Sequence record: MK524178.1
Reading direction: 5' to 3' (one strand)
Length of the DNA stretch: 64,000 bases
Source: Escherichia phage PHB12
Shown here: in pieces, positions 1-37,479 of the stretch
How positions within the stretch are numbered: the first letter of the stretch is position 1
How the letters are laid out: each line of letters starts with the position of its first letter
Made by a program: the position numbers and the translations under genes
The notes under the pieces: generated by a model
Databases searched by the model: none
Seen by the model: only the letters and a program-made list of their open reading frames with translations
Told to the model about the DNA's origin: nothing

Positions 1-1009
1 ATGTGTCAGTGAATTCTAATACAGCTTTTGTGTAAAGCGCAACTACTTCTTTCTTAGGAGTAGAGGAATCAATTTCTACACGCACAGTATCTGGGTCGTA
101 TTCAAATGTCGCATGAGGATAATCCTTAAAAACTAACTGGATTACAGGGACACCTTTAGAGATGGCTTCAATAGAACTATTCTCTACCGTACCTGTGTTA
201 GGACACGTATTAATAAGTGCTTTAGCTGTTTTAAGACGTTCCATGATTTCACTGTGTGGAGCATCAATAATAACAGGATATTTAGCTGGTGGTGCCCATT
301 TGCTTGGACAGTATCCTACACCATTTTCGCCTAGTGCTTTAATCGCTTCAAGAGCAACATCAGTACGACGCATTTTAGTGTCATAACGTTGTGCACTAAT
401 AATCAGATCAGTCGCCGGAAGAACTTCAGGTTTCTCATTCAAACAAATAACCGGATAATCTTCGGCTTCAAACAACGGATTTGCTCGCCAATAATCATAA
501 TCAATTTTGTCAGTCAGACCTGAAGTCATATAACAATATTTGCGTTCAAATTCACGGAAGGCTTTAGTAGGAGCATAACTCTTACCACCATTCTTATGAA
601 TTTGAATAGTCTGGTCCCAAATTTGAACAATGCCACGAGATACAGGTTCAAATGGTGTTGCCATAAAATTCTTATGAACTTTAGAGAGACCTGCGTCTTT
701 AATTGCCTGAACGGTTAGTTTAGTCGGTTCCATAGTAACAACAAAATCGTATTCATGGATGCCGGCTAGTTCAACAATCTTACGAGCCATAGTATAACTC
801 ATACCTAGACTGAATTTAGTCAGATGACCAACAGGATGGTGTGTAACTTTCCAGTCACCAAACGTGTCATTATCAAAACCGATATAATCAATATCAGCAC
901 CAATAGAAACTAAATATTTCAACACATTTAAATGTACTGCTTCAAGGCCACCTTGTACACGGTCAGGATTAAATGGGACTGCACGAGATGGGATAAACAT
1001 AACTTTCAT
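1..1009 (-). CDS. GT-B fold glycosyltransferase, N-terminal ~336 aa (C-terminus lies beyond window edge); candidate DNA sugar transferase
   Basis: Minus-strand translation from ATG at 1009..1007 gives MKVMFIPSRAVPFNPDRVQGGLEAVHLNVLKYLVSIGADIDYIGFD..., open to position 1; absent from ORF track because its stop is outside the window. N-terminus resembles GT1/GT4 and T4 alpha-glucosyltransferase (hydrophobic strand, then GG-x-E). Confidence 0.5.
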   Translation of the reverse strand, partial: MKVMFIPSRAVPFNPDRVQGGLEAVHLNVLKYLVSIGADIDYIGFDNDTFGDWKVTHHPVGHLTKFSLGMSYTMARKIVELAGIHEYDFVVTMEPTKLTVQAIKDAGLSKVHKNFMATPFEPVSRGIVQIWDQTIQIHKNGGKSYAPTKAFREFERKYCYMTSGLTDKIDYDYWRANPLFEAEDYPVICLNEKPEVLPATDLIISAQRYDTKMRRTDVALEAIKALGENGVGYCPSKWAPPAKYPVIIDAPHSEIMERLKTAKALINTCPNTGTVENSSIEAISKGVPVIQLVFKDYPHATFEYDPDTVRVEIDSSTPKKEVVALYTKAVLEFTDT

Positions 1010-1034
1010 AATTAAGCCTTATTAAATTAAAATG

Positions 1035-1052
1035 AAGCTCCCGAAGGAGCTT
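1035..1052 (-). terminator. hairpin terminator after gene 39 (UUCG loop)
   Basis: AAGCTCC-cgaa-GGAGCTT on plus; U-rich tract follows on minus strand. Confidence 0.5.
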
Positions 1053-2868
1053 AGGACATCCATTCTTTACGAAGTTCTGAATCATCACCCAACAACATTT
1101 CAAAGAGTTCTTTCCAATTTTCAGGAAGTTTAACTACGTCGTACACAGGGTTTTGAATCATTTCACGATATTCTGACTTTTCAAGGGAGCCCAATCCCTT
1201 GATGTATCGAATACTATGCTTAGGCAGTGTATCTTTAGCTTCTTCATACTCAGCTACAGTATAAAACCATTTTTGAGTTTTGCCAATTTGTGCAATAATT
1301 ACAGGCGTTTTAACAAAGCGAATACGTCCTTGTTCAAACAATTCAGGCCAATTACTAAAGAAAGCAAGCAAAGCCGGATAAATACTTCCAAGACCGTCAT
1401 GATCGGCATCGGTCATAATTGCAATATTACGATAGTTCGTATTCTCTGCCTTTTCACCAAGAATAAGACCTGTGATAGCACAGATATCAAAGAGCTCTTT
1501 GTTCTTCATCATATCAGCATATGACATACCCCAGCTATTCATTACCTTACCACGTAATGGGAACCCGCCGTGTAGTTCACGGTCACGAACATCAATGAGA
1601 TAACCAATTGCCGAATCACCTTCTGTTAAAAACAATGTCGTATCTGCATCTTTACCACATTGGTTAGCTTTAATATGCTTATGAACCTTAGCTTTAGTTG
1701 CCTTTTTAGCTGCTTTAGTTTCTGCAGCCTTTTCTGCTGCCAATTTACGAGCTAATGCTGCTTCAACAATAGGCATAATCAAGGCTTCGTTTTTAAGAAG
1801 TGCCTGAGCAATTTTCTTAGTATCTAATTGGATATGATTACGAATATCACCATACGTTGACGTTAAACGTTCTTTAGTCTGAGAATCAAAACGCATGTTG
1901 CTCATGTCTCTAATAAACATCAACATTGTGAGACATTCTTTAACACGAGCTTTAGTGACTTCAATACCCTTATATTTCTTTTTAATACCAGGCAAAAGAT
2001 GTTCGCAGATATCATCCATTACACATTCAACGTGATGACCGCCATTTTTAGTATGGATGTTATTCACATAAGTTAAATGTCGGAAGCCATCTGGTGATGT
2101 TGTGAATGCTATAGAGACTTTATCATTTTCTTGAATGATGTTATCTTCGCCAAATTGTTTAGCAAATCGTTTAAAATTACCATCAACCTTTTTACCATTA
2201 AATGTGAACTTGATATCAGGATAAACGACTGCCAATGTTTGAAGTCGGTCTAAAGTAATATCTAAATAAATTTGAGATAAATTATGCTCTTCAAATGAAG
2301 AGAAATCAGGAGTGAAGATTACTTTAGTGCCTTTACCTTTAGATTTCTTAGAAGACCATGATTTGTTTTCCATTCCGTTTGAACAGTTAACAGTGATTTC
2401 ATTTTCGCCATCTGACGTGATGCCTGTAAACAACGTAGAGAAGATATTAGTTAAACTACTCCCGACGCCGTTCATACCACCAGTCTTACGTTCAGAGTCA
2501 TCGCCAAAGTTACCACCAGCCTTTGGAATAGTCCAGGCTGCTACAGGCCCAGGAATTTGTTCACCTGTTTGGTCGGTAACTAAACCTTGAGGAATACCAC
2601 GCCCGTTATCTTCCACCGAAACTTGATTATTTTTAATTTGCACATCAATTTTATTTGCAAACTTAAATGATGTACGAATAGCTTCATCAACCGAGTTGTC
2701 AATAATCTCATCGATTAATTTAACCAGACCAGGAACATATTCAACTTGTTGATATTTACCAAACAAAAAACGCTCGTGGGCTTCTTTGGCCGAAGAACCA
2801 ATATACATGCCACTACGTTTCTTAATATGTTCTACATCTGACAATACCTTAATTTCATTTTTAATCAT
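1051..2868 (-). CDS. 39: DNA topoisomerase II large (ATPase) subunit, fused 39+60 form
   Basis: 605 aa; N-terminus MIKNEIKVLSDVEHIKKRSGMYIGS and GHKL motif DNGRGIP match T4 gp39; length implies the region that is separate gene 60 in T4 is fused in. Confidence 0.9.
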   Translation of the reverse strand: MIKNEIKVLSDVEHIKKRSGMYIGSSAKEAHERFLFGKYQQVEYVPGLVKLIDEIIDNSVDEAIRTSFKFANKIDVQIKNNQVSVEDNGRGIPQGLVTDQTGEQIPGPVAAWTIPKAGGNFGDDSERKTGGMNGVGSSLTNIFSTLFTGITSDGENEITVNCSNGMENKSWSSKKSKGKGTKVIFTPDFSSFEEHNLSQIYLDITLDRLQTLAVVYPDIKFTFNGKKVDGNFKRFAKQFGEDNIIQENDKVSIAFTTSPDGFRHLTYVNNIHTKNGGHHVECVMDDICEHLLPGIKKKYKGIEVTKARVKECLTMLMFIRDMSNMRFDSQTKERLTSTYGDIRNHIQLDTKKIAQALLKNEALIMPIVEAALARKLAAEKAAETKAAKKATKAKVHKHIKANQCGKDADTTLFLTEGDSAIGYLIDVRDRELHGGFPLRGKVMNSWGMSYADMMKNKELFDICAITGLILGEKAENTNYRNIAIMTDADHDGLGSIYPALLAFFSNWPELFEQGRIRFVKTPVIIAQIGKTQKWFYTVAEYEEAKDTLPKHSIRYIKGLGSLEKSEYREMIQNPVYDVVKLPENWKELFEMLLGDDSELRKEWMS

Positions 2869-2914
2869 GTTGTCTCCTCGTTATGAAGGTATTCTATCAT
2901 CCGAAATCTAAAGC

Positions 2915-2933
2915 AAAAAGGGCCGAAGCCCTT
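2915..2933 (-). terminator. hairpin terminator (GGGC-UUCG-GCCC + U-run)
   Basis: aaaaaGGGCcgaaGCCCtt on plus; sits between 2932..3357 and gene 39. Confidence 0.5.
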
Positions 2934-3357
2934 ATTTAAATTTAATTTTCTGAAGTGCATCAATTGCAGCCAAACGCCCTTGTTCACTTTTAACTGTAAT
3001 GACCACATCACCTGATACGATCACCGAACCATCAACAAATTCTACAGAGCCTTTTTTGAAATCGACAGATGTATCTGGTTCCGGAACTTCTTCAAAGAAT
3101 TTAAATTCTGCACCATAAAGCAGAATATCACCTTGCATACTATGAATAGTTCGGCCATAATCGCCTACGGCTTCTACGGCAATAACCGAAACGCCGTAAC
3201 CAATCATCTCTTCCACAATAAAATCTTTGGACAATAAAGTAGTATGCAGATTAGTATTAAGACGTTTACCAGTCGTATTAAGAATTCTCAAGAAATTATC
3301 TTCCTGTCCTTTGATAATACGATATTTCTTACCAACTTCAAAACCTTTAAAAGCCAT
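2932..3357 (-). CDS. hypothetical protein (39.1 position)
   Basis: 141-aa ORF directly upstream of gene 39, co-directional; no recognisable motif. Confidence 0.4.
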   Translation of the reverse strand: MAFKGFEVGKKYRIIKGQEDNFLRILNTTGKRLNTNLHTTLLSKDFIVEEMIGYGVSVIAVEAVGDYGRTIHSMQGDILLYGAEFKFFEEVPEPDTSVDFKKGSVEFVDGSVIVSGDVVITVKSEQGRLAAIDALQKIKFK

Positions 3358-18927: not shown

Positions 18928-19269
18928 TTAAAAGAATTTAAATTTTTTCTTGGTCCGTTCATTAAAAGCTTGTTGTACTTGCATTGTAACACATTTTTCA
19001 ACATGTGGTGCAAGTTCTGCTTTTCTGTCCTGGTCAAGAACTGCAAAGTCCATTACGATTTTACCATCAACCCAGTCTAGTTTTGTAATATAGACTATAT
19101 GATGAGAACCATCTTCAAGTGTAATCAGAATCTCTTGAATGACATTTTCCATTGCTGAACGGATAATTTTAAGAGATTCATTAAACACTCGTTCTTTGCG
19201 AATGTCTTCCCCTTCCGAAGAAGGGGATTCATCAACGATTTCTAGATTTAAATCATCGAGATTATTCAT
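18928..19269 (-). CDS. hypothetical protein at gene 40 position
   Basis: Between 41 and uvsX as T4 gene 40; start moved to MNNLDDL. Confidence 0.4.
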   Translation of the reverse strand: MNNLDDLNLEIVDESPSSEGEDIRKERVFNESLKIIRSAMENVIQEILITLEDGSHHIVYITKLDWVDGKIVMDFAVLDQDRKAELAPHVEKCVTMQVQQAFNERTKKKFKFF

Positions 19270-20434
19270 CGAAATCTTCCATTTCGTCAAGGTCGTTTTC
19301 TATATCTGCTGCAGACGGAGCATCAGAAGTTTTAACTGGAACTTTAGTTGTTGCTTTGCAATTAATAAGGTCGTTAACAGCGTCATCAACTTCTTTAATA
19401 GAAGAGATAGCACCTAGTTTATATTTAGTTTCAATTGCATCTCGGAAAGGTTTGTGTTTAAACAAAGGTCCCCAGAATTCTACACAATCAGTAGCTTTAG
19501 CACGCCATGATTTCTCTTCACGAATCATTTCGCCTGTTTCTTCGTCAAGGAATTCTCGAGCATACCACCCGGCTTTAGGCTTAACTACAAAACCAATTTC
19601 AGTTGCCATTTCTAACAAGCCACTGAATGGGTCAATACCACCATCAAAATTAACCGTGATCGGGAAAGTAGATTTTTCTTTAACGGTTCGAGATTTTTCT
19701 GCTTTCAACGTGAAGTCATAACCGGTCAATTCTGTGCCTTCTTTAACCTGACGTTTAGAGATAAAGAATACAGTGTTAGCAGAGTAAAGAATACCTGTAC
19801 CACCACCCATAATCTCTTTAGGATATAGACCGCCGATTTCCATTGCTGTATGGTTGATTGCAACACATGGAATATCTTTAATAGTCAGATAAGGAGTCAC
19901 AATGCGGAACAGAGATTTAAGTGCCTTAGCACGAGACATATCACCTACGACTTTCTCGTTCAATGCATCTTCGGTTTCTTTCTTAGATGCAGTATTACCA
20001 ATCGAGTCAATAAAGATAATAACTTTATCACCACGTTCAATCGCGTCAAGCTGATTAGTCATATCAACTTTAAGTTGTTCGACAGATTGAATCGGAGTAT
20101 GAACTACACGGTCTAAATCAACACCCATTGAACGAAAATAAGATTCTGAAGCACCAAATTCTGAATCATAGAACAAACAAATTGCATCTTTATATTTCTT
20201 CATATATGCTGCAACCATGGTCAGTCCAAACAACGTTTTAAAGTGTTTAGAAGGAGCAGCAAAAATAGTTAAGCCTGATTGCAACCCAGCATTCAGTGCA
20301 CCACCTAATGCAATATTCAACATCGGAATACGAGTAGGGACTTCATCGCGATTATTAAACAACTTAGACTTAGTCAAGTCTGCAGTCATTTTAGAAGTAG
20401 AAGCTTTAATCAGACGAGATTTTAAATCAGACAT
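19262..20434 (-). CDS. uvsX: UvsX recombinase (RecA/Rad51 family)
   Basis: 390 aa; MSDLKSRLIKASTSK... N-terminus and RecA core match T4 UvsX. Confidence 0.9.
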   Translation of the reverse strand: MSDLKSRLIKASTSKMTADLTKSKLFNNRDEVPTRIPMLNIALGGALNAGLQSGLTIFAAPSKHFKTLFGLTMVAAYMKKYKDAICLFYDSEFGASESYFRSMGVDLDRVVHTPIQSVEQLKVDMTNQLDAIERGDKVIIFIDSIGNTASKKETEDALNEKVVGDMSRAKALKSLFRIVTPYLTIKDIPCVAINHTAMEIGGLYPKEIMGGGTGILYSANTVFFISKRQVKEGTELTGYDFTLKAEKSRTVKEKSTFPITVNFDGGIDPFSGLLEMATEIGFVVKPKAGWYAREFLDEETGEMIREEKSWRAKATDCVEFWGPLFKHKPFRDAIETKYKLGAISSIKEVDDAVNDLINCKATTKVPVKTSDAPSAADIENDLDEMEDFDE

Positions 20435-20533: not shown

Positions 20534-21082
20534 TTAACGAGCCCATTTGATAATTTCTGTAATCAAATTATTACGTTCGCTTGCATTAAATCCTATAACT
20601 TTGTTAGCACCATCATGATTAAGTAATTGATACGTTTGGATTTTGTTATGAATTGCAAACTCTTCAAAATATGAAATGACTGTATTAAAACCAAATGAAG
20701 ACAAAGTAATAAGGTCGTCTTCAAAACTTTCAGTCATTTCGTTACGTGTTAAAATAATTGTGAACACATCATGGTTTTGGCAAAGACGAACATAATCCTG
20801 TTCATAAACGTCAAGAACCGAGTCCACATCTTGTCGAATACGTCCATAAACCCAGTTACTAATATATCCACGGTCTAACAGATAAATCTTAGTAGGGTCT
20901 AAATAATTCAACATCGTTTCGAAACAGCCAACTTCATTTCGAGACTTAACATCGAAACGTCCATCAACTGTTCGTTTAGGGAAATCAATCTTTACATATC
21001 TTTCACTAATTTCCATTATGTCATTAATGAAAGTTGTTTTACCAGCATTATCCGGGCCATCTACTAAAATAATTTTAGCCAT
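20534..21082 (-). CDS. P-loop kinase-like protein (nucleoside/nucleotide or sugar kinase fold)
   Basis: 182 aa; Walker A GPDNAGKTT at residues 9-17; DRGY lid-like motif; not a T4 gene at this position. Confidence 0.5.
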   Translation of the reverse strand: MAKIILVDGPDNAGKTTFINDIMEISERYVKIDFPKRTVDGRFDVKSRNEVGCFETMLNYLDPTKIYLLDRGYISNWVYGRIRQDVDSVLDVYEQDYVRLCQNHDVFTIILTRNEMTESFEDDLITLSSFGFNTVISYFEEFAIHNKIQTYQLLNHDGANKVIGFNASERNNLITEIIKWAR

Positions 21083-21083
21083 T

Positions 21084-21983
21084 TTATTCCTCGATTATGA
21101 CATCTTCGTATTTAGGTATATTATACGGTGAAGAAATTAAAGCATTAAAGTAGATGAACTCACCAAGACCTGGATGGAATACTTCTTCAGGATTTTCGAA
21201 ATATTGAATCTTCGGCCGTCCTTTAAGAATTTGATAGTACTCAGTTTTAGTTGGTTTAAAAATTCGAATCAGTGCTTCTTCAGGATACTTATTTCTGTCG
21301 AAGCTATTATTTGGATCGGTTATATAAAGCGGTTGACCTAATTGAATTGCACATTCAACCACTTGTTCAAAACGATAACACGGGTCACTAATTCGAAATG
21401 GATGAAAAATACCATCTAGATGAATAGGAGCCAAATCACCTACAAGACGCTGCATGATGGAAGGACGTATAACTTTCTGCGTTACGATAATCTTATTACC
21501 ATCTGCACCTGCGTTAACCAGCACTTCTTTTTGACGTTCATTCAACACAGTAGTTTGAAGTGAACGATTAACAGACAACATGTCGGTTTTTAAGAATTCG
21601 TCAATATAAAAACGTGGTTTATTAGAGTCTGCAGTAATATTGAAATTGAATTCTACGTCAAAAGTGCCGTCATATCCAGTGATATCTGTGATTAGAAAAT
21701 CACAATCATAATAATCAATTAATGAATCAACCACAAATTCATTTTCAGACCAGAAATATTTACGAGTGTTATATGCGTTATCTTTATACCATAATGGAAC
21801 AAACTTAAATTCTGGGAAAAGACGTTCACATTCTTTAATATCAGATGCATTACGTGGATATGTAATTACATCACCCGGATTAGCACGGTGCAAATGAAGT
21901 TGGAAGTTGCCATCCTTAAGGATAGCATACTGTCCAGTTTCATAAGACCGCATACTCAAGATAGGTACGCGGAAAATAGCCAT
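21084..21983 (-). CDS. hypothetical protein at the beta-glucosyltransferase position
   Basis: 299 aa; no resemblance by eye to T4 Bgt; tightly packed between P-loop gene and gene 42 homologue. Confidence 0.5.
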   Translation of the reverse strand: MAIFRVPILSMRSYETGQYAILKDGNFQLHLHRANPGDVITYPRNASDIKECERLFPEFKFVPLWYKDNAYNTRKYFWSENEFVVDSLIDYYDCDFLITDITGYDGTFDVEFNFNITADSNKPRFYIDEFLKTDMLSVNRSLQTTVLNERQKEVLVNAGADGNKIIVTQKVIRPSIMQRLVGDLAPIHLDGIFHPFRISDPCYRFEQVVECAIQLGQPLYITDPNNSFDRNKYPEEALIRIFKPTKTEYYQILKGRPKIQYFENPEEVFHPGLGEFIYFNALISSPYNIPKYEDVIIEE

Positions 21984-22699
21984 TAGTCAAGGAATCCTTT
22001 AACATAATCAAAATCACGTTCAAACACATGGGCACTTACCATGGTATGAGTATAATCACCAACTTCTACACCACATTCGTTAGCGATATAATGAAGTAAT
22101 TTTCCTTGGAGATAAAAATCCAACTGCATAACAACAGCACAGTTCTGAGAACGCATATGACAGTGGGTATAAAGCTTACCATCACGAATATAATAAGTCA
22201 CTGAGTCAGTACATGGATATTCAAGTGTTTCATCCGAATCAAGCAAAGCCTGATCTGAACTTTCAAGAATTTGAAACACAACTCTTCGTGAATTAGGTTT
22301 CTCTTTAAGTTCTTTTAGAAGAGTTGGTAACTGGGCCGCAATGCGAGGACCATAGAAAGTGTTGAAGTTCGCAGGCAAAGCATCTGATTTTGGTTTAGAA
22401 ATAAATTTAGCGACGTTAGGATATGCCTTAAATGCTTCTTCTGCATCAGTACCACCAGAAATCATAAATTTCCAGAAATCTTCAGCATATTCATAAGAGA
22501 TGCGATTAATACGTGGGTCGGTCATTTTGAATGATGAAGGGGTATCAACAACTACTGTCATAGACCCAATTTCATTACAACGTCCAATACGAGAGTCAGT
22601 AACGAACTGTGGATTTTCTAAAATTTCACGATTGACAGCTTTAAATGCGGATTGAAAATCTGCGGCTTTAATATATTTCATTGTGTTATGTTTTCCCAT
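21983..22699 (-). CDS. 42: thymidylate-synthase-fold pyrimidine C5 hydroxymethylase (gene 42-like, divergent)
   Basis: 238 aa; catalytic-Cys block YPCTDSVTYYIRDGK...HMRSQN parallels T4 gp42 FMCTNTVQYLIRD...NMRSND. Confidence 0.6.
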   Translation of the reverse strand: MGKHNTMKYIKAADFQSAFKAVNREILENPQFVTDSRIGRCNEIGSMTVVVDTPSSFKMTDPRINRISYEYAEDFWKFMISGGTDAEEAFKAYPNVAKFISKPKSDALPANFNTFYGPRIAAQLPTLLKELKEKPNSRRVVFQILESSDQALLDSDETLEYPCTDSVTYYIRDGKLYTHCHMRSQNCAVVMQLDFYLQGKLLHYIANECGVEVGDYTHTMVSAHVFERDFDYVKGFLD

Positions 22700-22978: not shown

Positions 22979-24139
22979 TCATTCCGGGTACCTCAAAGCG
23001 TCATCAGAGTTAGTTATATCAATAATAGATATAGAGTTTTCTGCTAACCCATTTTTAGATAACTGACGTTTATAATATCTTTCACAATATGTACACGTCG
23101 TCCCGCAGATTTCATTAGCACAATCGAAATCTGGATGTCTGAACCACCTTTTTTCTAAAAAGCCATCTAACAAAGAGGTTTCAATATTTACTGTATGTGA
23201 AAACTCGGTTTCGTTTTCAAGAGTGAAAATAGTCTCTAAAGGCTTCCACAATTCCAACAAATTACCTTCAAATTTTTCAGAAGCATAAGCTTCAAGAACT
23301 TTCAAAATGTAGTCTGTGCTACCTGTACGTCCTGAAACTTTGAATTGAGTGATACCAATATCATTATAAAGTTTCAAATCTTGAGGACGAACAAAACGAG
23401 TTCTCAACCAGTTAAATGGGTCTGTATCACGAGCTTTAATACAGTGTTGCATTGGATATCCATTTAAGGATTTGGCATCATCTACTGTAACGTCGGTGCT
23501 ATGGAAAATATAGCAAGAGTCACGATAGCTACAATGTGTTGTATACCCTTTACCAGCATTAGAACAGAACTCATTTACAAGAACTTCAAATATTATATTG
23601 TTCTTATTACAAAACTCTGCTGCGCGTTTCAGGAAAGAAACTGAACGGTTCTTATGAATTCCACAGCAGACCTTTTTGATATTATATTGGTCATGCAAAT
23701 ATTTGATTTGAGTTACAGCATCAACATGTAGAATTGTTGAAACTTCAATCTCAATGTCTTTATTGACTTCACGAACAATTTCCATAACAACAGGGTTAGC
23801 GATAGTAATACGCCATACGCCTATTGACCAAAGATACTGAACATAATCCTGAATAGCTTTCTTCTTCCACTCAACTAGTTCTCTTTTTGAACCAGGATTT
23901 ATCGTGTTGAGTGTATAGTTAAAGCAAATACCTAATTCGTTACAACGTTTAACATAATCTTCTAACATCTTTTTGTCAACGTCAGGAAGCCTAAAATCAG
24001 GTCTGGCTGCTACAAAAGCCATTTCTCTTGTAGAGCCGTATACTTCGTTTATCAAGCTATTAGGATAAGTTTTATTGAGCTCTACGATTTTATCAAGAAG
24101 AGCTAAATCAAAATTCGTTCCGATTTTAAAGGTATTCAT
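22979..24139 (-). CDS. cysteine-cluster enzyme-like protein, unknown function
   Basis: 386 aa, 14 Cys including C-terminal CANEICGTTCTYC (C-x3-C-x3-C-x2-C); possible Fe-S or Zn site. Confidence 0.5.
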   Translation of the reverse strand: MNTFKIGTNFDLALLDKIVELNKTYPNSLINEVYGSTREMAFVAARPDFRLPDVDKKMLEDYVKRCNELGICFNYTLNTINPGSKRELVEWKKKAIQDYVQYLWSIGVWRITIANPVVMEIVREVNKDIEIEVSTILHVDAVTQIKYLHDQYNIKKVCCGIHKNRSVSFLKRAAEFCNKNNIIFEVLVNEFCSNAGKGYTTHCSYRDSCYIFHSTDVTVDDAKSLNGYPMQHCIKARDTDPFNWLRTRFVRPQDLKLYNDIGITQFKVSGRTGSTDYILKVLEAYASEKFEGNLLELWKPLETIFTLENETEFSHTVNIETSLLDGFLEKRWFRHPDFDCANEICGTTCTYCERYYKRQLSKNGLAENSISIIDITNSDDALRYPE

Positions 24140-24193: not shown

Positions 24194-24595
24194 TTATAGA
24201 TTCGGTTTATATGATTTAAATGTTTCGAATTCGCCTTTATTCATAAGAGCTTTGAATTCGTCAGGACGCATAGCTTTGTCGTCGATAATCCAATCATATA
24301 CTGGTTTATGTGTTAGCAAATTATGGTACTTCAATCCAATGTTTGCCAAGTTCTGAATCAGACTTGGGAGAATGTCAATTGCTATACGACCAGGACCGAC
24401 TGACTTCATACCGCGAGCAGTGTAAAGAGTTATTGTATGCCCTGCATCATACAGGGCATTAATGGCAGACACCATTTCGACGTCTGGTTTGAAGTTCACG
24501 TAATCACGATTGTTATTCCACTCTGTTATACAATCATCGACATCAAAACAAAGATTAAGCATGTTTTCTACACGGTGCATTAGATTCGTTCCCAT
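24194..24595 (-). CDS. HAD-superfamily phosphatase-like protein
   Basis: 133 aa; motif I FDVDDCIT and motif II TLYTARG. Confidence 0.5.
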   Translation of the reverse strand: MGTNLMHRVENMLNLCFDVDDCITEWNNNRDYVNFKPDVEMVSAINALYDAGHTITLYTARGMKSVGPGRIAIDILPSLIQNLANIGLKYHNLLTHKPVYDWIIDDKAMRPDEFKALMNKGEFETFKSYKPNL

Positions 24596-26265
24596 TGATG
24601 AGTGATATCGCCACCGATTGGACGATAGGAAACACCAGTTTCTTTATCAGTTAGTACCCATTTACCAGGATTTTTTGTAATCAGAGTAGCCGTTACAGGT
24701 TCTGCTACGTCATAACTAATAGAGCCGTCTTGAAGTACACGGCCCATGTTACGTAATTGCTTAGTCAGAAGTTCCATACCTTTATAATATGCGGCTACCG
24801 CTTTAAGTGGATTATTCTTGAAATAACCACCTAATGCAATCCAGATAATTGCTACAGCCAAATGATGATATTCATTAAACGAACTCATCTTTCCATATTT
24901 GTAAACTAATGGATTGATGTTAATAGTCACATTACAAGTTGTTTCATCAATAGTAAACTGTCCCCAGGTCGGATTAGCGTTGAATTCATCATAACCTGAA
25001 ACAGCATAAAGCACTTTAGCTTCATCGTACAATTTTGGCCCATAAATCTTGGTTTCGCCAAAATATCCACGAGGGTCGATAAACTTAACTTCGCCGTTAT
25101 CAGTAATCATAGTATTACTGAAGTTCGGGTCACCATGAATAACAGAGTACTGTCCCTGAGAACGATTATGATAACGAATAAGGTGTTCTAAAGCTTGTTT
25201 CAGCATTGGCTTCAGACGTCCAATCTTAGTGTAGTTCACATGTGTGATTTTACCAAATGAATCAATCAATGGTTGAATGCTTTCACAACGATCAATAACT
25301 TTCGTATAGAATTCTTTAGTGAAATCACGACGAACAGTTTCAGGACTTACAAAATAAGTGTCTGTGCTGAATTTCAGTGCATCTAAAATTGCATCAACAA
25401 TTTGTGGACGAGCAAGACTCGATTTGGATTTAATATATTCAAATGCCGGCTTACCTTTAATGCGTTCCATTTCAAAGTTATTTTCATTAACAGAAACTAA
25501 CTGAGGAACTGAATCTGATTTCACTTTAAGATACCATGAAATCTCATCTTTCTGAAGAGCTCGGCCCTGTTCGGTTAATGCGAATTTAGTTACAGTTTCT
25601 TCACCAATTTCAACTGCATTAAAACTACGATTAAGTTCACGAACTTCATGAGCTTTTTCAAGTTTAGGCATATCACCTAAATCAATTAGATTCATAAGCT
25701 CTGATTTATTGAATGCGCTGCCGTAAAGGAATTCTACGAAATCACGTCCTTTGCAGTATTCATGAATTTCCTCATCAGTAGAACCCATATAGAATTCCCA
25801 GTCTTTGAACTGATAAATTCCTACAACATTACCACCTGTTGAACCTACGTTAGTGATATTTTCACCGTCGAAATTATATCGACATTCGTCACCCTTAACA
25901 TAGATTGCGTTAACATTCCAAGACCATGAGCCAAAATCAGGAATAATATCACACCAGTTAACAATTACATTATGGCCGTCTAAATCTTTGTGTAATTTAG
26001 CAAGAGCATAAGCAGAACCATACGCTTCATCAACTGTACGAATAGTCACATTGAACCCTTCTTGCTCACAATAAGCTCGAACAGTTTCAGCAAATTTTGA
26101 ATGAACTACTACAATAATTTCATCTGCGCCAAGGTCAGAATAAATTGTATACAAATTGCTCAGAATAGTGTCTTGTTTATAGTTAACAAGCACCTTAGGA
26201 ATATGATGCGTTATTGGATACAAACGAGTTGCCAGTCCAGCACCAAGAATAACAGCTTTTTTCAT
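24580..26265 (-). CDS. bifunctional sugar-1-phosphate nucleotidyltransferase / APH-like sugar kinase
   Basis: 561 aa; N-terminal ILGAGLATRL (NTP-transferase G-x-G-x-R) and C-terminal HGDPNFSNTM...IDPRG (kinase catalytic/DFG-like). Confidence 0.65.
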   Translation of the reverse strand: MKKAVILGAGLATRLYPITHHIPKVLVNYKQDTILSNLYTIYSDLGADEIIVVVHSKFAETVRAYCEQEGFNVTIRTVDEAYGSAYALAKLHKDLDGHNVIVNWCDIIPDFGSWSWNVNAIYVKGDECRYNFDGENITNVGSTGGNVVGIYQFKDWEFYMGSTDEEIHEYCKGRDFVEFLYGSAFNKSELMNLIDLGDMPKLEKAHEVRELNRSFNAVEIGEETVTKFALTEQGRALQKDEISWYLKVKSDSVPQLVSVNENNFEMERIKGKPAFEYIKSKSSLARPQIVDAILDALKFSTDTYFVSPETVRRDFTKEFYTKVIDRCESIQPLIDSFGKITHVNYTKIGRLKPMLKQALEHLIRYHNRSQGQYSVIHGDPNFSNTMITDNGEVKFIDPRGYFGETKIYGPKLYDEAKVLYAVSGYDEFNANPTWGQFTIDETTCNVTININPLVYKYGKMSSFNEYHHLAVAIIWIALGGYFKNNPLKAVAAYYKGMELLTKQLRNMGRVLQDGSISYDVAEPVTATLITKNPGKWVLTDKETGVSYRPIGGDITHQWERI

Positions 26266-26306: not shown

Positions 26307-26450
26307 CTAGTTAAAGCATTCATACTTTGCTTGTAGTCCAATCATAATCCATCCGATTATAAGAGTCGGAATCATTACTGGAGCCGTTAAGCTCCAGTAG
26401 ATAGTCATGACAAGCATCAATAGTAAAAGTCCTATTGTTATTGCTTTCAT
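26307..26450 (-). CDS. small hydrophobic ORF coupled to isomerase gene
   Basis: 47 aa MKAITIGLLLLMLVMTIYW...; ATG overlaps stop of 26447..27082 (ATGA). Confidence 0.3.
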   Translation of the reverse strand: MKAITIGLLLLMLVMTIYWSLTAPVMIPTLIIGWIMIGLQAKYECFN

Positions 26451-27082
26451 TGTTCGCCTCGTAACATGGCACCTAGTGCACCGCCAGGGTGGAACTTAAG
26501 GAAGTCATTAGAGGTAAATCCACGTTCAGACGAAAGGTTGATAGCAAACGTATCGATAAGCGCTAACAACAATGTAGTGGACATGGTCGGAGCCAGAGAA
26601 TTCTCATCGACCTCTACTGCGATGCCTGTACAGAACGTATAATCAAAAAGAGCTTCGTATTCTTGTGGAATGTCTGGGTTACAATGCAACAGAATCTGTT
26701 TGACGTTCGGACGAATCATTTTAAGATGCTTAGCCACGCCTATCATTTCTTCAGTTTTACCGGAACGACTAATATGAATCAACACATCATTAGGCGCAAT
26801 GAATCCTGCATCACCGTGAGAATAATGCCCAGTGTTCAAGTACATACTCGGGATACCGAGTGAAGCAAATGTCTCAGAAGCTTTAGTTGCAATATTAGCA
26901 TTCTTACCAACACCTGTAATAATTACTCGGCTTTCATAATTACTAAGTCCAGGGCGTCGAAGAGTTTCTAGAATAGCATTATAACGAGCAGGGTTTTGAC
27001 TAATTACTTTGGCCATAGCGGCCAAAGAAGAAGCTTGTTTTATGATTGCGTCAATAGCGATAGTAATAGGAGTAGTTTTCAT
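26447..27082 (-). CDS. SIS-domain sugar-phosphate isomerase (KdsD/GutQ/GmhA-like)
   Basis: 211 aa; VIITGVGKNANIATKASETFASLGIPS and SRSGKTEE resemble SIS phosphosugar-binding motifs. Confidence 0.65.
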   Translation of the reverse strand: MKTTPITIAIDAIIKQASSLAAMAKVISQNPARYNAILETLRRPGLSNYESRVIITGVGKNANIATKASETFASLGIPSMYLNTGHYSHGDAGFIAPNDVLIHISRSGKTEEMIGVAKHLKMIRPNVKQILLHCNPDIPQEYEALFDYTFCTGIAVEVDENSLAPTMSTTLLLALIDTFAINLSSERGFTSNDFLKFHPGGALGAMLRGEQ

Positions 27083-27122: not shown

Positions 27123-29834
27123 TCAAAAATCGAACATATCGAACAGAGATGCTTTCTTCTCGTAATCGAGTTTCGCTGCTGATGTGAATCCTTCAAGTGG
27201 TTTAATAAATGTCTTCTCAAGGAGAACAGTGTAGTCCATCCAATGAAGTACGTCGTCTTTAATTAAATCTGTGATTTCAGTGCCAGAAGGCCATGCGATA
27301 CATTTATCACCGAATGGGTTTCCTTCACGTAAAGGCAGAACATATACTTTTTCACCTTCTACAACTTGTGGTGCATCGATATTACCTTTGATAGCCCGGT
27401 TATACGTCAGAATTCCACGAATATGGAATGGGCATTTGGGACCAGGGAATCCACCTACGTCATATTTAGCAATGTTATTCGCAGAAGATACCGACGCGAT
27501 GCTAATATAATTCAATTGACGGAATTCTTTTTCAAACTCTTTAAAATATTCTTGTAATGATTCTTCACCTTCTTGAAGCATACGACGAATACATTCTTTA
27601 AGAGCTTTCTGTACTGCTTTAGGAGTCGAAGATTTCTGAGTCTCTAGACCCATGATTTTGAGTTTAGGCTCAGCGTAACGAGTACCTTCCATATCCCACA
27701 CGTTTAATGCATAACGTTTCTTACCAGTCCAGAATCCACCAATACCTTTAGAACCTAATGGAGGCCCAGCGATAGCTTCTCGGTCCATGAACATTAAGTG
27801 TTGTTTATTGTTCATGTATTCACACATTTCACGGAAACCTCTATCAATAGCTGGTTCCATACGTTCACGTGCAAACTTATCTAAGAAGTCTACCCAATGG
27901 TTGGTATCACGGAATTTAGATTCACCAACCTTATCGATAATTTTATCAGCAGATACGTAAATAGAGTCTGTATCACCATAAAGAACGAAAGCTTCACCTT
28001 CTGTACCACAAACTTCATTCAGATATTCATTAACTTTACGTTCAATCCACTGTAAAGCCATTTGACCAAATGTTGTGATTGCAGTAGCATTACGCAAATC
28101 ATAATAACGGAACCAAACGTTTCCAAGTGCACCATAAAGTGAGTTGATAAGCAATTTACGGTTAATTTGAGCAGTCATACCTGCAACTTCAGTACGTTGA
28201 GCTCTAAACAACATTTCATTAAGAGATTTAGCAGACAACTTTTTAATCTTTTCTTTAATCTCATCACTGAAGTCGAAACGATAATCAACATCTAATGGTT
28301 CGTCAACAGAAAGATTAGGATTATGCAATGCCTCTTTAATTATTTCACCATTACGTTGAGCTGCAAGCATGTAACCTTTATGTTCTTTACGTTGATTAAA
28401 GACCTTAGTGATTTCAGTTGGAACTACACCATCACGGTCTTTATAATACATCATGCCGTTAGGAGAGCAACTGTACACATCTGAAGGACGTTCAGCAACA
28501 GCGTTAATATAATCATGCAATGGAGCTACTTTAAACGTTCCTGCTATTGTTTCTGGGCTAATATTCACTTGGCGAATAATACTTGGATACAGAGATGTAA
28601 GGTCGAAACTCATTACATATTTGTATCGATTCGGAATAGGTTCCTTAACAAAAGCGCCGGGATAAGGTTGAACCGGGTGAGAACGACCTTGTGGAATCAC
28701 CTTGTTCTGCTCTTTAAGGCTATTAAAAATAATAGCATCCCATGTTTTAATTGGACTAAACACAGATTGAATCTGTATCTTAGCATAATAACCCATGTCC
28801 AAACTCAAGTTGATGAACTGACGCTTAGCATCAATTTGCAATACACGGTACACGTCGATAATGTTATAAGAAATATATCGTTGGTGATTGCTTTCACGAA
28901 GCTTAGAAATAGGGCCGTCATATTTCAGTTTACCAACGTTCAATTCAAATTCTGAAATGTAATCCAGAGAATATGATGGTTGATTGGTAAAAGAGAATTT
29001 TTTGTAAAGGTCAATGTAATCAAGAACAGAGATACCGAACAATGTAATGATTTCACGAGAACCATACATGTTTTCGATAACTTTAACACGAGTTTTACGA
29101 TGTGGTGATAAACGTTTCGCAGTAGATTCGCCAAAAATATTCTTGATTCGGTTATACACATACGGAATATCAAATGACTCAACGTTCCATCCAGTCAAAA
29201 TGACAGGAGTTTTCTGTTGCCAGAAGTTGAGATATTCCATCAACAATTCTTTTTCGTTATCGAACGGCATATAAATGATTTTATCGATAATTTCAGATGG
29301 AACTTCATCACCACCTTGTTCTTGAAGCTTAGCAGCGATTTCAATAGACCATTCTTCTACATTACCATATGGAGAATTCAATAGATCAAATACATAGAAC
29401 CTGTCGTCAATTGAGTCATAATGGGTGATAGCATCAATCGGATGTTTTGCTTGTGACGGCTCAGGGAACCCATCCGGAGATGTTACTTCGATGTCGAAGT
29501 TAGCCACACGAATTTTTGTATGGTCATATTTGATTTCATAGTTATAAGTGTCAGACAAATACGCCAATTTGAAATCGTCCATGCCAAGTGCTTCAAGTCC
29601 GATATCTTCCATGCGTTTAATCCATTGGGAGGCATCACGCATATTGGCGAACAACTTACGAGTACACGGCTTACCGTAGATATCGAAATATTTCGTAGCC
29701 TGACTTTCTGGGCAATGAGCAAACAGTGATGGTTTATATTCTACTTCACGAGTACGTTCACGGCCATTAGAATCGATGTAACGTTCAAAAATTGAATCAC
29801 CAATCTGTTCAACCGTTAAGTAAAATTCTTTCAT
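27123..29834 (-). CDS. 43: DNA polymerase (family B)
   Basis: 903 aa; MKEFYLTVEQIGDSIFERYIDSNGRERTREV...; exo motifs FDIE and YNIIDV, pol motifs DLTSLYPS and YGDTDS; matches RB69 gp43 from memory. Confidence 0.97.
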   Translation of the reverse strand: MKEFYLTVEQIGDSIFERYIDSNGRERTREVEYKPSLFAHCPESQATKYFDIYGKPCTRKLFANMRDASQWIKRMEDIGLEALGMDDFKLAYLSDTYNYEIKYDHTKIRVANFDIEVTSPDGFPEPSQAKHPIDAITHYDSIDDRFYVFDLLNSPYGNVEEWSIEIAAKLQEQGGDEVPSEIIDKIIYMPFDNEKELLMEYLNFWQQKTPVILTGWNVESFDIPYVYNRIKNIFGESTAKRLSPHRKTRVKVIENMYGSREIITLFGISVLDYIDLYKKFSFTNQPSYSLDYISEFELNVGKLKYDGPISKLRESNHQRYISYNIIDVYRVLQIDAKRQFINLSLDMGYYAKIQIQSVFSPIKTWDAIIFNSLKEQNKVIPQGRSHPVQPYPGAFVKEPIPNRYKYVMSFDLTSLYPSIIRQVNISPETIAGTFKVAPLHDYINAVAERPSDVYSCSPNGMMYYKDRDGVVPTEITKVFNQRKEHKGYMLAAQRNGEIIKEALHNPNLSVDEPLDVDYRFDFSDEIKEKIKKLSAKSLNEMLFRAQRTEVAGMTAQINRKLLINSLYGALGNVWFRYYDLRNATAITTFGQMALQWIERKVNEYLNEVCGTEGEAFVLYGDTDSIYVSADKIIDKVGESKFRDTNHWVDFLDKFARERMEPAIDRGFREMCEYMNNKQHLMFMDREAIAGPPLGSKGIGGFWTGKKRYALNVWDMEGTRYAEPKLKIMGLETQKSSTPKAVQKALKECIRRMLQEGEESLQEYFKEFEKEFRQLNYISIASVSSANNIAKYDVGGFPGPKCPFHIRGILTYNRAIKGNIDAPQVVEGEKVYVLPLREGNPFGDKCIAWPSGTEITDLIKDDVLHWMDYTVLLEKTFIKPLEGFTSAAKLDYEKKASLFDMFDF

Positions 29835-35230: not shown

Positions 35231-35459
35231 TACACGCTTCAGCCATTTTAAGAATAGAGCCAGGAGTATCGTTGTCCATTATATTAAAGCTAAATTCAAT
35301 AGCCCAGTCGGTACAAACATGAACAGCTTTAACTTCATTGCCTTCAACACGTAATGGTTCAATCCAATACGTGATAGTGTTCTCGAATCCATCATCATCT
35401 TTAACGTCCATTTCAACTTCAAGCCCGAGCCCAGCATTGTTAAATTCATCTAAAGTCAT
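35202..35459 (-). CDS. hypothetical acidic protein (46.2 position)
   Basis: 85-aa ORF. Confidence 0.4.
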   Translation of the reverse strand: MTLDEFNNAGLGLEVEMDVKDDDGFENTITYWIEPLRVEGNEVKAVHVCTDWAIEFSFNIMDNDTPGSILKMAEACIEDAYNDED

Positions 35460-36475
35460 TGTGTTGCCTCAATATAAAGTTCGTTGGAATATTTGACCAG
35501 TGCTTCTCTGTCTTCGTCTGAGATATCTGGAATCGCGTCAATATATTCTTTAATGATATCTTGAAGTGATTTAATCTCGATTTCCTGGTCGTCATCAGAT
35601 TCAACACTGTTATCAACTTTAGAAACCATACGAAGAGAGTGAACTACTTTTTCAAGTTCAGATTCAAACTTAGTCAACTCTGAATCAATTTCTGATACTA
35701 TAACACGTAAGGCTAGATTAGTATAATCAGAATAATTGATTTTGCCTTTAAACGGATAAGTGATTCGTCGATGCCATGTTGTTTCATTAGGAATAAATTC
35801 CATACGTTCAACATCAGTGTCAAATACCCAGAATCCGCGCGGGTCGTTCTCATCACCCGCAGTAAGGGTCCATGGTGTCCCAATATATTTGACGTTAGCA
35901 GCTTCAGAGATTGTGTGGAAGTGGCCGGACCAGACTTGTTTATAGGTCTTTAAGAAATCAGGTTCAAGCCCATGAGACTTCATTCCTTTATAGAAATAAA
36001 AGCCGTTCAGTTCCCAGTGCCCAACACAATACGCTGCAGAAGAAGTCTTGATGTGCTCTAAGATTTCACCTGTATTTTCTTCACACATCCATGGAACGAT
36101 ATCAATCAGACATCCGTCAAAATCTACAGTAGTTGGATGTTCGTAAATAGTAAAGTTTTCAAATTGAGTTAACAATTCAGAAACAGTGTTAGGTGTTATT
36201 GTATTCTTAAACGCCATGTCATGGTTTCCTATCGTGACATGAACGTGAATGCCTGCTTTAGAAATCATATCAACGATTTCACGATTGAATTCCATTGTAC
36301 GATGTGTAATTGCTTTACGGACGTCAAACCAATCACCATACTGAATCCAAGTTTTAATCCCGTGTTTCTTAGAGTATTCAATTGCTTGACGAATACCATC
36401 ACGTTGAATATCTTGGACCCATGGGTCGTCTTGTTTGACTCCGATATGGAAGTCGCCTAAGTGCAAAATTTTCAT
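35456..36475 (-). CDS. 47: recombination nuclease subunit (Mre11/SbcD-like)
   Basis: 339 aa; phosphoesterase motifs MKILHLGDFH, GDWFD, GNHD. Confidence 0.9.
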   Translation of the reverse strand: MKILHLGDFHIGVKQDDPWVQDIQRDGIRQAIEYSKKHGIKTWIQYGDWFDVRKAITHRTMEFNREIVDMISKAGIHVHVTIGNHDMAFKNTITPNTVSELLTQFENFTIYEHPTTVDFDGCLIDIVPWMCEENTGEILEHIKTSSAAYCVGHWELNGFYFYKGMKSHGLEPDFLKTYKQVWSGHFHTISEAANVKYIGTPWTLTAGDENDPRGFWVFDTDVERMEFIPNETTWHRRITYPFKGKINYSDYTNLALRVIVSEIDSELTKFESELEKVVHSLRMVSKVDNSVESDDDQEIEIKSLQDIIKEYIDAIPDISDEDREALVKYSNELYIEATQ

Positions 36476-36521
36476 ATTATTTCCTCATTAGTTAATTCAT
36501 TCTATCATCCGTTTATAAAGC

Positions 36522-36545
36522 AAAAAAGGAACTCCGAAGAGTTCC
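36522..36545 (-). terminator. rho-independent terminator (GGAACTC-UUCG-GAGTTCC + U6)
   Basis: aaaaaaGGAACTCcgaaGAGTTCC on plus, between small ORF 36545..36718 and gene 47. Confidence 0.65.
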
Positions 36546-36718
36546 TATCCACATAGTACACCGTACAGAGGCTCATTTGAACTTTTAAATCGAATGGGCT
36601 TGTACGTAATAGTTCCTTCGGCTTTAGCTTTATCATAAGACTCTTTAAAACGTCTCATTCTTTCTGCTTTGCCTTTACGGATTTTATCGAAATTTTCAGA
36701 AGTCGGGATGTTCGTCAT
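36545..36718 (-). CDS. small basic ORF (57 aa)
   Basis: Not in track; MTNIPTSENFDKIRKGKAERMRRFKESYDKAKAEG...; terminator hairpin at its 3' end. Confidence 0.3.
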   Translation of the reverse strand: MTNIPTSENFDKIRKGKAERMRRFKESYDKAKAEGTITYKPIRFKSSNEPLYGVLCG

Positions 36719-36757
36719 GCATAAGCACCTCTCAGAAAATGCCTAAATCGATTTCTC

Positions 36758-36979
36758 TCATCGTTTCCACCATTTCTTAACTTGAAATGAATCAACCCAC
36801 ACGAGTTGTTTTGGGTCTGCCTTTACAATAGGCGGACAAATTTCTGTAATAGAACCGTCGTGATATTCCTTTTCGGAAATTTTAACACAAAGAGGACCAC
36901 CCAATTTAACGGTGAACCCTGCGTTCAGCTTCAGACGTTTAAACTTTGTTTGAACTAGCGCCATTAATGATGTCCTCAA
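36758..36979 (-). CDS. hypothetical protein
   Basis: 73-aa ORF. Confidence 0.35.
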   Translation of the reverse strand: MRTSLMALVQTKFKRLKLNAGFTVKLGGPLCVKISEKEYHDGSITEICPPIVKADPKQLVWVDSFQVKKWWKR

Positions 36980-37262
36980 TAGCCTGACGAGTAGTAACCC
37001 ACTGGATTTTAATTAACTTGTCATTATACGGTTGTCGTAGAATACCCCGAGATTTCTTAATAGCATATTCGTAAGCTTCGAAGTTGTTTTGAATTGCTGC
37101 TTCTTGAGCATGTGCATAAAGACGGTTTAGTTCAAAACGATTCTTTTTAAGAATCTTTTCGGATTTTTTACGTGCTTCAGCTTCATTTTTCTTTTGGATT
37201 TCTTGTAGCATTTTAGCTACTGCATCTTCTGCTTCTTTATTTTCAATAATCTCGGTAGTCAT
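36939..37262 (-). CDS. hypothetical protein
   Basis: 107-aa ORF. Confidence 0.4.
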   Translation of the reverse strand: MTTEIIENKEAEDAVAKMLQEIQKKNEAEARKKSEKILKKNRFELNRLYAHAQEAAIQNNFEAYEYAIKKSRGILRQPYNDKLIKIQWVTTRQAIEDIINGASSNKV

Positions 37263-37263
37263 A

Positions 37264-37479
37264 TTATCTCATTAAATTAAAATAAAAACGTCCGTCCTCT
37301 TCAATGCAGAACTCGTACTCAACCGGAGTCCCATTTATCGAAAATGACACGTCGTGTGGGTTCAAAGGATCGATGTCAAAATTAATTTTAAATTCTCGAC
37401 CCAACAGTTTTACCAAATAAGGGATTGCTTCGTCAAAAGGTTCTTCTAAGTAGTTAGAGATATCAATTGTCATCCTCAT
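37264..37479 (-). CDS. hypothetical protein
   Basis: Start moved to internal [10 protein letters not shown]. Confidence 0.35.

Follow-up and report, generated by a model that had tools for sequence, protein, structure and literature searches.

A GT-B Glycosyltransferase Gene Next to Gene 39 of an RB69-Type Phage and Its Probable Role in DNA Arabinosylation

The Gene at the Edge of the Window

The window, the whole 64,000-nucleotide stretch of Escherichia phage PHB12 DNA (MK524178.1) analyzed here, begins inside a gene on the minus strand (Table 1). The reading frame starts at an ATG (1009-1007), is still open at base 2, and comprises 336 stop-free codons. Its product begins with MKVMFIPSRAVPFNPDRVQGGLEAVHLNVLKYL, exactly the N terminus quoted in an earlier sequence-only reading of this DNA, which had reported a cut-off minus-strand frame beside gene 39. 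In the closest complete genomes, the orthologue measures 1101 nt (366 aa), and rIIA.1 and rIIA come after it. The window holds 336 of these 366 codons (92%); the last 30 lie past its edge, and their absence relative to the complete orthologues is an artefact of that edge. The first 3 kb of the window are 98%–99% identical to about 150 Mosigvirus (RB69-like) genomes. The Mosigvirus gene order is rIIA - rIIA.1 - glycosyltransferase - gene 39; the gene 39 side lies in the window, and the rIIA.1 side, seen in the genomes that are 98%–99% identical, is predicted beyond its edge. Under uniform codon usage, the estimated chance that AT-rich phage DNA would hold an open frame of 336 codons is <1e-7. 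This length, far beyond chance, and the 99% identity to a structurally solved protein indicate that the frame is a real gene. The plus-strand ORFs within 1-1009 (≤74 aa) were rejected as antisense artefacts, given the well-supported gene on the minus strand.

The stop codon of the fused gene 39+60 lies 41 nt upstream of the edge gene and is overlapped by a hairpin, which is followed by a weak T-run. The hairpin may act as a partial terminator or as an mRNA stabilizer between gene 39 and the transferase gene. A scan for sigma-70 promoters around the edge gene gave fewer sites than shuffled controls and none in the 41-nt upstream gap.

Table 1. Features of the Window at the Edge Gene, in the Arabinose Cluster, and between Genes 47 and 55
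Feature	Coordinates	Strand	Evidence
RB69 ORF003c/gp3-type GT-B glycosyltransferase, 5' 92%	1..1009	-	ORF; 332/336 residues identical to RB69 gp3; 98.8% identical to 9IQZ/9IR0; AF2 pLDDT 88.8; PHROG 8302
Shine-Dalgarno-like TAAGG, 7 nt upstream of the edge-gene ATG	1017..1021	-	Direct sequence reading
7-bp hairpin with UUCG loop (AAGCUCC-UUCG-GGAGCUU)	1035..1052	-	Sequence; terminator-like site, same place in locus L001
Gene 39, fused 39+60 DNA topoisomerase II large subunit, 605 aa	1051..2868	-	79% identical to T4 gp39
Thymidylate-kinase-like nucleotide kinase (RB69 gp45 equivalent)	20534..21082	-	PHROG 761, E 7e-45; PMC13326640 Table 1
Second GT-B glycosyltransferase, 299 aa (RB69 gp46:47 equivalent), in the T4 b-gt slot	21084..21983	-	AF2 pLDDT 93.3; Foldseek
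Thymidylate-synthase homologue, 5-hydroxy-dCMP synthase type (RB69 gp48 equivalent)	21983..22699	-	PF00303; D169N signature
Peptidase-U32-like protein (RB69 gp50 equivalent)	22979..24139	-	PF01136, E 6e-11
HAD-type phosphatase (RB69 gp51 / HY126 AfhF equivalent)	24194..24595	-	PHROG 1238; PMC13326640
Bifunctional sugar-1-kinase and UDP-arabinose pyrophosphorylase (RB69 gp52:53 / HY126 AfhE equivalent)	24580..26265	-	Pfam
SIS-domain arabinose-5-phosphate isomerase (RB69 gp55 equivalent)	26447..27082	-	PF01380; PMC13326640
Gene 47-55 interval, orthologues of T4 a-gt.2, a-gt.3, a-gt.4, and a-gt.5 only	36476..37462	-	tblastn

Comparison with RB69 and its relatives, which the sequence-only reading had proposed as a check, identifies the gene. 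Its product shares 332 of 336 residues (99%) with RB69 ORF003c/gp3 (NP_861693), and ORF003c is the novel transferase to which the same reading referred as lying near the genome start of RB69-type phages (Thomas, 2018; PMC6024577). The protein is also 98.8% identical (E 4e-229) to the glycosyltransferase of phage HY126, for which an apo structure (9IQZ) and a UDP-bound structure (9IR0) were both released on 2025-07-16; a literature search for these two entries returned unrelated chemistry papers only. From the UDP complex of so close a homologue, UDP binding by the edge protein is predicted. Four residues distinguish it from the HY126 protein: Y160H, G164A, N271D, and S315F (window residue first). 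At position 271, Asn is found in the window and in the Acinetobacter homologues, whereas the compared orthologues from SF, RB69, HY126, and vB_Eco_F31 have Asp. The full-length SF orthologue matches PHROG 8302 (E 1e-222), a family listed as of unknown function. The edge gene is orthologous to RB69 ORF003c/gp3 and encodes the Mosigvirus version of a GT-B (GT4-like) glycosyltransferase that depends on a UDP-sugar; being the orthologue of a described and structurally solved protein, it is already known.

Fold, Motifs, and Family Size

Searches of Pfam with the full-length orthologue, the window fragment, and the 299-aa second glycosyltransferase gave no match even at E ≤ 10, and the Glyco_transf_4 and Glycos_transf_1 profiles in particular did not match the edge protein directly. 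The assignment of fold and family was therefore drawn from structure prediction and profile searches. The AF2 model (pLDDT 88.8) has a GT-B fold with two Rossmann-like domains, a cleft between them, and a C-terminal helix that crosses back. Its top structural neighbors are sucrose-phosphate synthase, BshA, PimA, WaaG/WaaB, and PglA (Foldseek E 1e-11 to 1e-12). Distant relatives retrieved with the family profile (E 1e-13 to 1e-5) do match Glyco_transf_4 and Glycos_transf_1.

Several motifs are conserved. G20 and G21, which form the N-terminal GG loop after strand beta-1, are invariant in 11 family members and in the distant relatives, and R208 and E281-A-x3-G-x-P are invariant across the gp3-type family and its GT4-like relatives. 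The EX7E motif is absent from the gp3-type family: the position of the canonical first Glu is occupied by Thr or Gly, and a family-invariant Glu, E276, lies three residues after it, giving E276-x4-E281. E281, which lies in IEAISKGVPV, is the second Glu and is invariant. A true E-x7-E is retained in the distant relatives. Fold and some of the motifs thus make the edge protein GT-B and GT4-like, although neither Pfam profile matches it and the canonical EX7E is lacking. The GT1/GT4-type N terminus noted from the letters of the DNA is consequently upheld by the GG loop, the fold, and the Pfam matches of the relatives, though not by a direct Pfam match. The family is small: a search of 5.8 billion proteins found 9 clusters at 90% identity, and one of 1.84 billion found 25 representatives at E ≤ 0.001.

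The alpha-Glucosyltransferase Slot

The interval between gene 47 (35456-36475) and gene 55 (37463-38020) contains ORFs of 57, 73, 107, and about 70 aa, which correspond to T4 a-gt.2, a-gt.3, a-gt.4, and a-gt.5 (tblastn E 1e-14 to 1e-31). T4 a-gt, 47.1, mobB, and b-gt found no match in the 64-kb window, the best E values of 1.8-2.9 being at chance level. The earlier description of this slot as empty of a-gt is therefore accurate. That the edge gene might be a displaced a-gt or b-gt was considered and rejected: profile-profile comparison of the gp3 family with T4 a-gt and b-gt gave no signal (hhalign probability 0.1%, E 0.4-0.5).

The Arabinose Cluster

The region from uvsX (19262-20434) to gene 43 (27123-29834) contains seven genes; in T4 it is occupied by segA, b-gt, 42, and imm. 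The sequence-only reading had covered the a-gt slot; the b-gt slot, from uvsX to the gene-42 homologue, holds a second GT-B gene. The product of this gene (hereafter the cluster GT) resembles MshA, BH4 (tetrahydrobiopterin) glucosyltransferase, and UDP-GlcNAc 2-epimerases (Foldseek E 3e-6 to 1e-4). BLASTP between the edge and cluster glycosyltransferases returned chance matches only, and comparison of the two family profiles gave no signal. The edge gene was accordingly rejected as a paralogue of the cluster GT, given no detectable sequence similarity.

Of the remaining products, the bifunctional enzyme has an N-terminal NTP_transferase match and weak C-terminal matches to kinase families (Pfam). 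The AfhF-type phosphatase converts Araf-1,5-P2 to Araf-1-P, as far as the HY126 work is quoted in PMC13326640; a literature search on AfhA-AfhF found nothing relevant besides that paper. The peptidase-U32-like gene is absent from the Acinetobacter and metagenomic arabinose clusters examined.

The Acceptor Base

The thymidylate-synthase homologue of the cluster is only 25% identical to T4 gp42. At the position of D169 in ThyA it has Asn, reading MRSQN where E. coli ThyA has QRSCD and T4 gp42 has MRSND. The D169N change marks 5-hydroxy-dCMP synthases, according to Lee et al. (NAR 2026; PMC13326640). RB69 DNA contains no hmC and carries instead beta-D-Araf-(1->3)-alpha-D-Araf-O5-2'-deoxycytidine, together with a mono-arabinosyl form (PMC13326640). 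Mosigvirus NP has the same chemistry, and the earlier assignment as "ara-hmC" was erroneous (Durham Collection paper; PMC13390438). Judged from its synthase sequence, the window phage makes 5-hydroxycytosine in place of hmC, and the thymidylate-synthase homologue is not a dCMP hydroxymethylase. The synthase signature and the published chemistry of RB69-type DNA together argue that the acceptor is not hmC, as the sequence-only reading had supposed, and this part of its proposal has to be abandoned. With 5-hydroxycytosine (5hoC) as the acceptor base, inactivity on hmC DNA would be expected even of a true DNA transferase.

Distribution and Copy Number of the Two Glycosyltransferases

The two genes were traced through a collection of 50,697 phage records to compare their distribution. 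The cluster GT is present in 348 of these and in at least 138 protein clusters, and among the matches listed it lies beside the thymidylate-synthase homologue. These records include phages of Klebsiella, Serratia, Enterobacter, Proteus, Yersinia, and Edwardsiella as well as Dhakavirus-type coliphages; the synthase homologue is found in the same taxa and also in Rhizobium phages. The gp3-type gene occurs in 211 records, as one copy in Escherichia/Shigella Mosigvirus and, among the matches listed, at two places per Acinetobacter record. Its taxa and identity-band counts (211) fall within those of the cluster GT (348), and about 137 records have the 5hodCMP synthase and the arabinose cluster without a gp3-type gene.

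In Acinetobacter phage Lazarus the order is isomerase, pyrophosphorylase/kinase, phosphatase, synthase, cluster GT, kinase, gp3-type, gp3-type. The two Lazarus copies (gp072/gp073) are 57% identical to each other and 41%–43% identical to gp3. In an uncultured T4-like contig, a single gp3-type gene (37% identity) separates the kinase from uvsX. In both cases the gp3-type genes are embedded in the arabinose cluster (loci L004 and L008).

This distribution bears on the possibility that the edge gene encodes a non-DNA enzyme, which would glycosylate a component of the host envelope, a lipid, or a protein, as its GT4 neighbors do. The structural neighbors listed above, and the distance of 20 kb between the Mosigvirus gene and the arabinose cluster, are compatible with such a role. 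The family is, however, tiny. In the phage collection it occurs only among Mosigvirus-type coliphages and Acinetobacter T4-like phages, groups that possess the arabinose cluster, and in other lineages it lies inside that cluster; in addition, its paralogues act on DNA in vitro. A non-DNA role is accordingly considered very improbable. The sequence-only reading had named a match to a host LPS enzyme as grounds for discarding a DNA transferase. LPS and cell-wall GT4 enzymes are indeed among the structural neighbors, but this likeness reflects the ancestry of the fold and not the substrate.

The number of gp3-type genes can be set beside the number of sugars on the DNA. Thanatos, which has the cluster GT only, is mono-arabinosylated (PMC13326640). 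Phages with one gp3-type gene, RB69, NP, Bas46, and Bas47, are di-arabinosylated. DLP3, with two, is tri-arabinosylated (PMC13326640). Whether a phage has mono-, di-, or tri-arabinosylated DNA can apparently be predicted from its gp3-type gene count (0, 1, or 2). This explicit tabulation of copy number is the sole addition made here to the literature of 2018-2026.

Assignment of the Two Transfer Steps

By analogy with its relatives, the product of the edge gene probably catalyzes the second step, in which the first sugar on DNA receives a beta-D-Araf at O3. Two lines of evidence point to a second, chain-extending transferase: the relation of gp3-type copy number to sugar number and the assay of the DLP3 enzymes, in which gp76 and gp77 together added a third Araf from UDP-Araf onto RB69 DNA in vitro (PMC13326640). 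UDP-D-arabinofuranose is, by the same comparison with the DLP3 paralogues, the predicted donor of the edge protein. For the base-proximal alpha-arabinosyltransferase, the cluster GT is proposed as the better candidate, since it adjoins the synthase of the modified base and is found in every one of the 348 arabinosylating phage records. Lee et al. arrived at the same allocation and presented it openly as hypothetical, with "arabinosyltransferase 1" as their name for gp46:47 and "beta-arabinosyltransferase 2" as that for RB69 gp3 (PMC13326640). They could not tell whether the first sugar is attached to DNA or to the mononucleotide (PMC13326640). From sequence, the edge gene had been ranked above all others in the window as a candidate DNA sugar transferase; it does encode a GT-B enzyme of an RB69-type modification system, but the cluster GT outranks it for the base-proximal step.

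The opposite allocation, in which the edge gene product is the primary enzyme and places arabinose directly on the modified cytosine, was the sense of that earlier proposal and of Thomas 2018, where ORF003c was put forward as "the" arabinosyltransferase (PMC6024577); the BASEL annotation of the Bas46 orthologue, a putative hmC-arabinosyltransferase, agrees with it. The glycosyltransferase signature is also clearer in the edge protein than in the cluster GT (Foldseek E about 1e-6 for the latter). In vitro, moreover, no DLP3 transferase acted on bare-5hoC DNA, and gp79, the presumed first-step enzyme, was inactive on it (PMC13326640). Against this allocation, the roughly 137 records with synthase and cluster but without a gp3-type gene imply that another enzyme attaches the first sugar there, as does mono-arabinosylated Thanatos with its cluster GT only, and gp3-type copy number tracks the extra arabinoses. 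In the form with hmC as acceptor, it is contradicted by the D169N signature of the synthase. Primary transfer by the edge gene product is thus regarded as improbable.

Another arrangement, which we also judge to be unlikely, is that the two GT-B proteins function solely as a complex, with the edge gene required for both additions, for example, as a DNA-binding or activating partner. DLP3 gp76 and gp77 were active only in combination, no single glycosyltransferase working alone (PMC13326640), and the chain labels of 9IQZ, which run up to H, suggest an oligomer or several copies per asymmetric unit. On the other hand, the cluster GT alone suffices for the first step in many phages, and, unlike gp3 and the cluster GT, which have no detectable similarity, gp76 and gp77 are paralogues (57% identical). 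Bas46 without its "arabinosyltransferase Aat" is described in a citing paper (PMC13216743) as viable and as becoming susceptible to a plasmid-borne defence, and this viability also speaks against a complex needed for both additions. Chain extension by the edge gene product is the reading retained here.

The name Aat, according to what is reportedly the usage of Mahler et al. in 2025, denotes transferases that add extra arabinoses. The edge gene is probably the Aat of Bas46, with the cluster GT as the other possible bearer of the name.

Proposed Pathway and Stereochemistry

The modification may proceed in four steps. In the first, the dCTPase and the D169N synthase would produce 5hodCMP, which would then be phosphorylated and incorporated at replication, as published experiments on orthologues suggest. 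In the second, the isomerase, the kinase/pyrophosphorylase, and the phosphatase would convert ribulose-5-P to UDP-D-Araf, to judge from the HY126 AfhE/AfhF work quoted in PMC13326640. The cluster GT would next attach alpha-D-Araf to O5 of the base. In the last step, the product of the edge gene would bind UDP-Araf in its C-terminal domain and extend the first sugar at O3 with beta-D-Araf; on the model of GT4 enzymes, R208 would likely contact the diphosphate and E281 the ribose of UDP. The resulting di-arabinosylated cytosine would shield the genome from DNA-targeting defences.

GT4 enzymes are retaining. If an alpha and then a beta linkage are formed from a single UDP-Araf donor, one of the two GT-B enzymes must invert. 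It is suggested, tentatively and as a rather doubtful possibility, that the edge gene product is this enzyme, an inverting furanosyl transferase built on a GT4-like scaffold and acting on a DNA-bound sugar. The displaced catalytic acid (E276-x4-E281 in place of EX7E) could be the structural basis of inversion.

Significance

Through the pathway to which the edge gene belongs, the cytosine of RB69-type (Mosigvirus) phages gives way to 5-hydroxycytosine bearing one or two arabinoses. Arabinosylation blocks many restriction enzymes and DNA-targeting CRISPR systems and is relevant to phage therapy and engineering. The analysis brings no new biology: the gene was proposed in 2018, its structure dates from 2025, and the pathway appeared in print in 2025-2026. 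Its value lies in annotation, as many GenBank records name the gene "hypothetical," "hmC-arabinosyltransferase," or "DNA alpha-glucosyltransferase," and many name the adjacent synthase "dCMP hydroxymethylase."

Comparison with Known Systems

The alpha-glucosyltransferase (GT72) and beta-glucosyltransferase (GT63) of T4 occupy genomic slots other than that of the edge gene and have no detectable sequence relationship to it. T4 AGT and BGT transfer Glc to hmC, whereas the edge protein is proposed to transfer D-Araf to a sugar on 5-hydroxycytosine. In structure, T4 AGT is further from the edge protein than are the bacterial GT4 enzymes. The latter (PimA, MshA, BshA, WaaG, and sucrose-phosphate synthase) share with the gp3 type the two Rossmann-like domains, the N-terminal GG loop, the Arg of the diphosphate motif, the E-A-x3-G-x-P ribose-binding motif, and UDP binding. 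They differ in that identity is only 10%–15%, the gp3 type has no Pfam match, and the first Glu of its EX7E is displaced; its proposed acceptor is a DNA-linked arabinose and its proposed linkage is beta.

Closer are gp76 and gp77 of DLP3 (gp072 and gp073 of Lazarus), members of the same family that align end to end with 41%–43% identity (E about 1e-100) and keep its invariant motifs. Their donor is UDP-Araf, and their substrate is 5hoC DNA that already carries arabinose (PMC13326640). In DLP3 they form a tandem pair within the arabinose cluster and the product is tri-arabinosyl, whereas the Mosigvirus gene is single and relocated to the rIIA-39 junction. Closest of all are RB69 gp3, the HY126 glycosyltransferase, and bas46_0103 of Bas46, which at 98%–99% amino acid identity are the same gene as the one at the edge of the window. 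In these relatives the gene lies between rIIA.1 and gene 39, a position that the window copy, with its gene 39 neighbor, would share, and an arabinose cluster accompanies it in all of them as in the window.

Residue 271 of the Transferase

The minus-strand GT-B glycosyltransferase at window positions 1-1009, the orthologue of RB69 gp3, carries asparagine at codon 271 (window 197-199; TCPNTG), whereas the orthologues from phages RB69, HY126, and SF have aspartate at this position (TCPDTG). Asparagine, as in the window, is also found in the homologues from Acinetobacter phages. Because residue 271 directly precedes the invariant TGTVEN motif, it may be in contact with the sugar-binding site.

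In Shigella phage JK45 (MK962757), the full transferase gene is followed by a 411-nt ORF (2694-3104 of the extracted locus, L007) that repeats the 3′ part of the gene. Either ∼500 bp have been duplicated in tandem, copying part of the gene, or the repeat is an artefact of assembly. Although JK45 is filed under Tequatrovirus, its transferase region is of the Mosigvirus type.

The Arabinosylation Cluster

Two clusters that are otherwise collinear with that of the window, one in Acinetobacter phage Lazarus (L004) and one in an uncultured T4-like contig (L008; Logan SRR34397668), do not contain the peptidase-U32-like gene (see table). For the product of this gene, "sugar or heterocycle reductase" is offered as a guess in a published table (NAR 2026; PMC13326640). 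The ORFs for the second GT-B protein (21084-21983; 299 aa) and for the bifunctional sugar-1-kinase/UDP-arabinose pyrophosphorylase (24580-26265; 561 aa) are both unbroken in the window, whereas the RB69 reference record has each in two pieces, gp46/47 and gp52/53. The intact ORFs are consistent with the published claim that these splits in RB69 are sequencing errors. The DNA polymerase gene of contig L008 (1540-5201) is divided into two ORFs of 502 and 390 aa lying ∼1 kb apart with three small ORFs in the gap, as might be expected if gene 43 were split or a mobile element had inserted.

Naming of the pathway in GenBank is not uniform, as seen in records L002 and L004 and in further database matches. 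Proteins of the gp3 type are labeled "hypothetical," "putative hmC-arabinosyltransferase," "putative DNA alpha-glucosyltransferase," or "GDP-mannose-dependent ... mannosyltransferase"; the 5-hydroxy-dCMP synthase appears as "dCMP hydroxymethylase" or "thymidylate synthase," and the HAD phosphatase as "phosphoheptose isomerase."

Features located in the window
Feature	Position	Strand	Remark
Hairpin, 7 bp, UUCG tetraloop	1035-1052	minus	overlaps gene 39 stop codon
Gene 39, single ORF, 605 aa	1051-2868	minus	T4 gp39 and gp60 parts fused
Peptidase-U32-like gene	22979-24139	minus	within arabinosylation cluster

Gene 39 and the Adjoining Hairpin

The hairpin, which is also found in phage SF, is followed on its 3′ side by a weak T-run, with the transferase gene directly downstream, and may act as a partial terminator or stabilize mRNA. 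In T4, this region also contains 60.1 and a remnant of mobA, and gene 60 has a 50-nt translational bypass region; none of these is present in the window. Intercistronic regions of T4 commonly contain mRNA-stabilizing hairpins, and the one described here is possibly of that kind.
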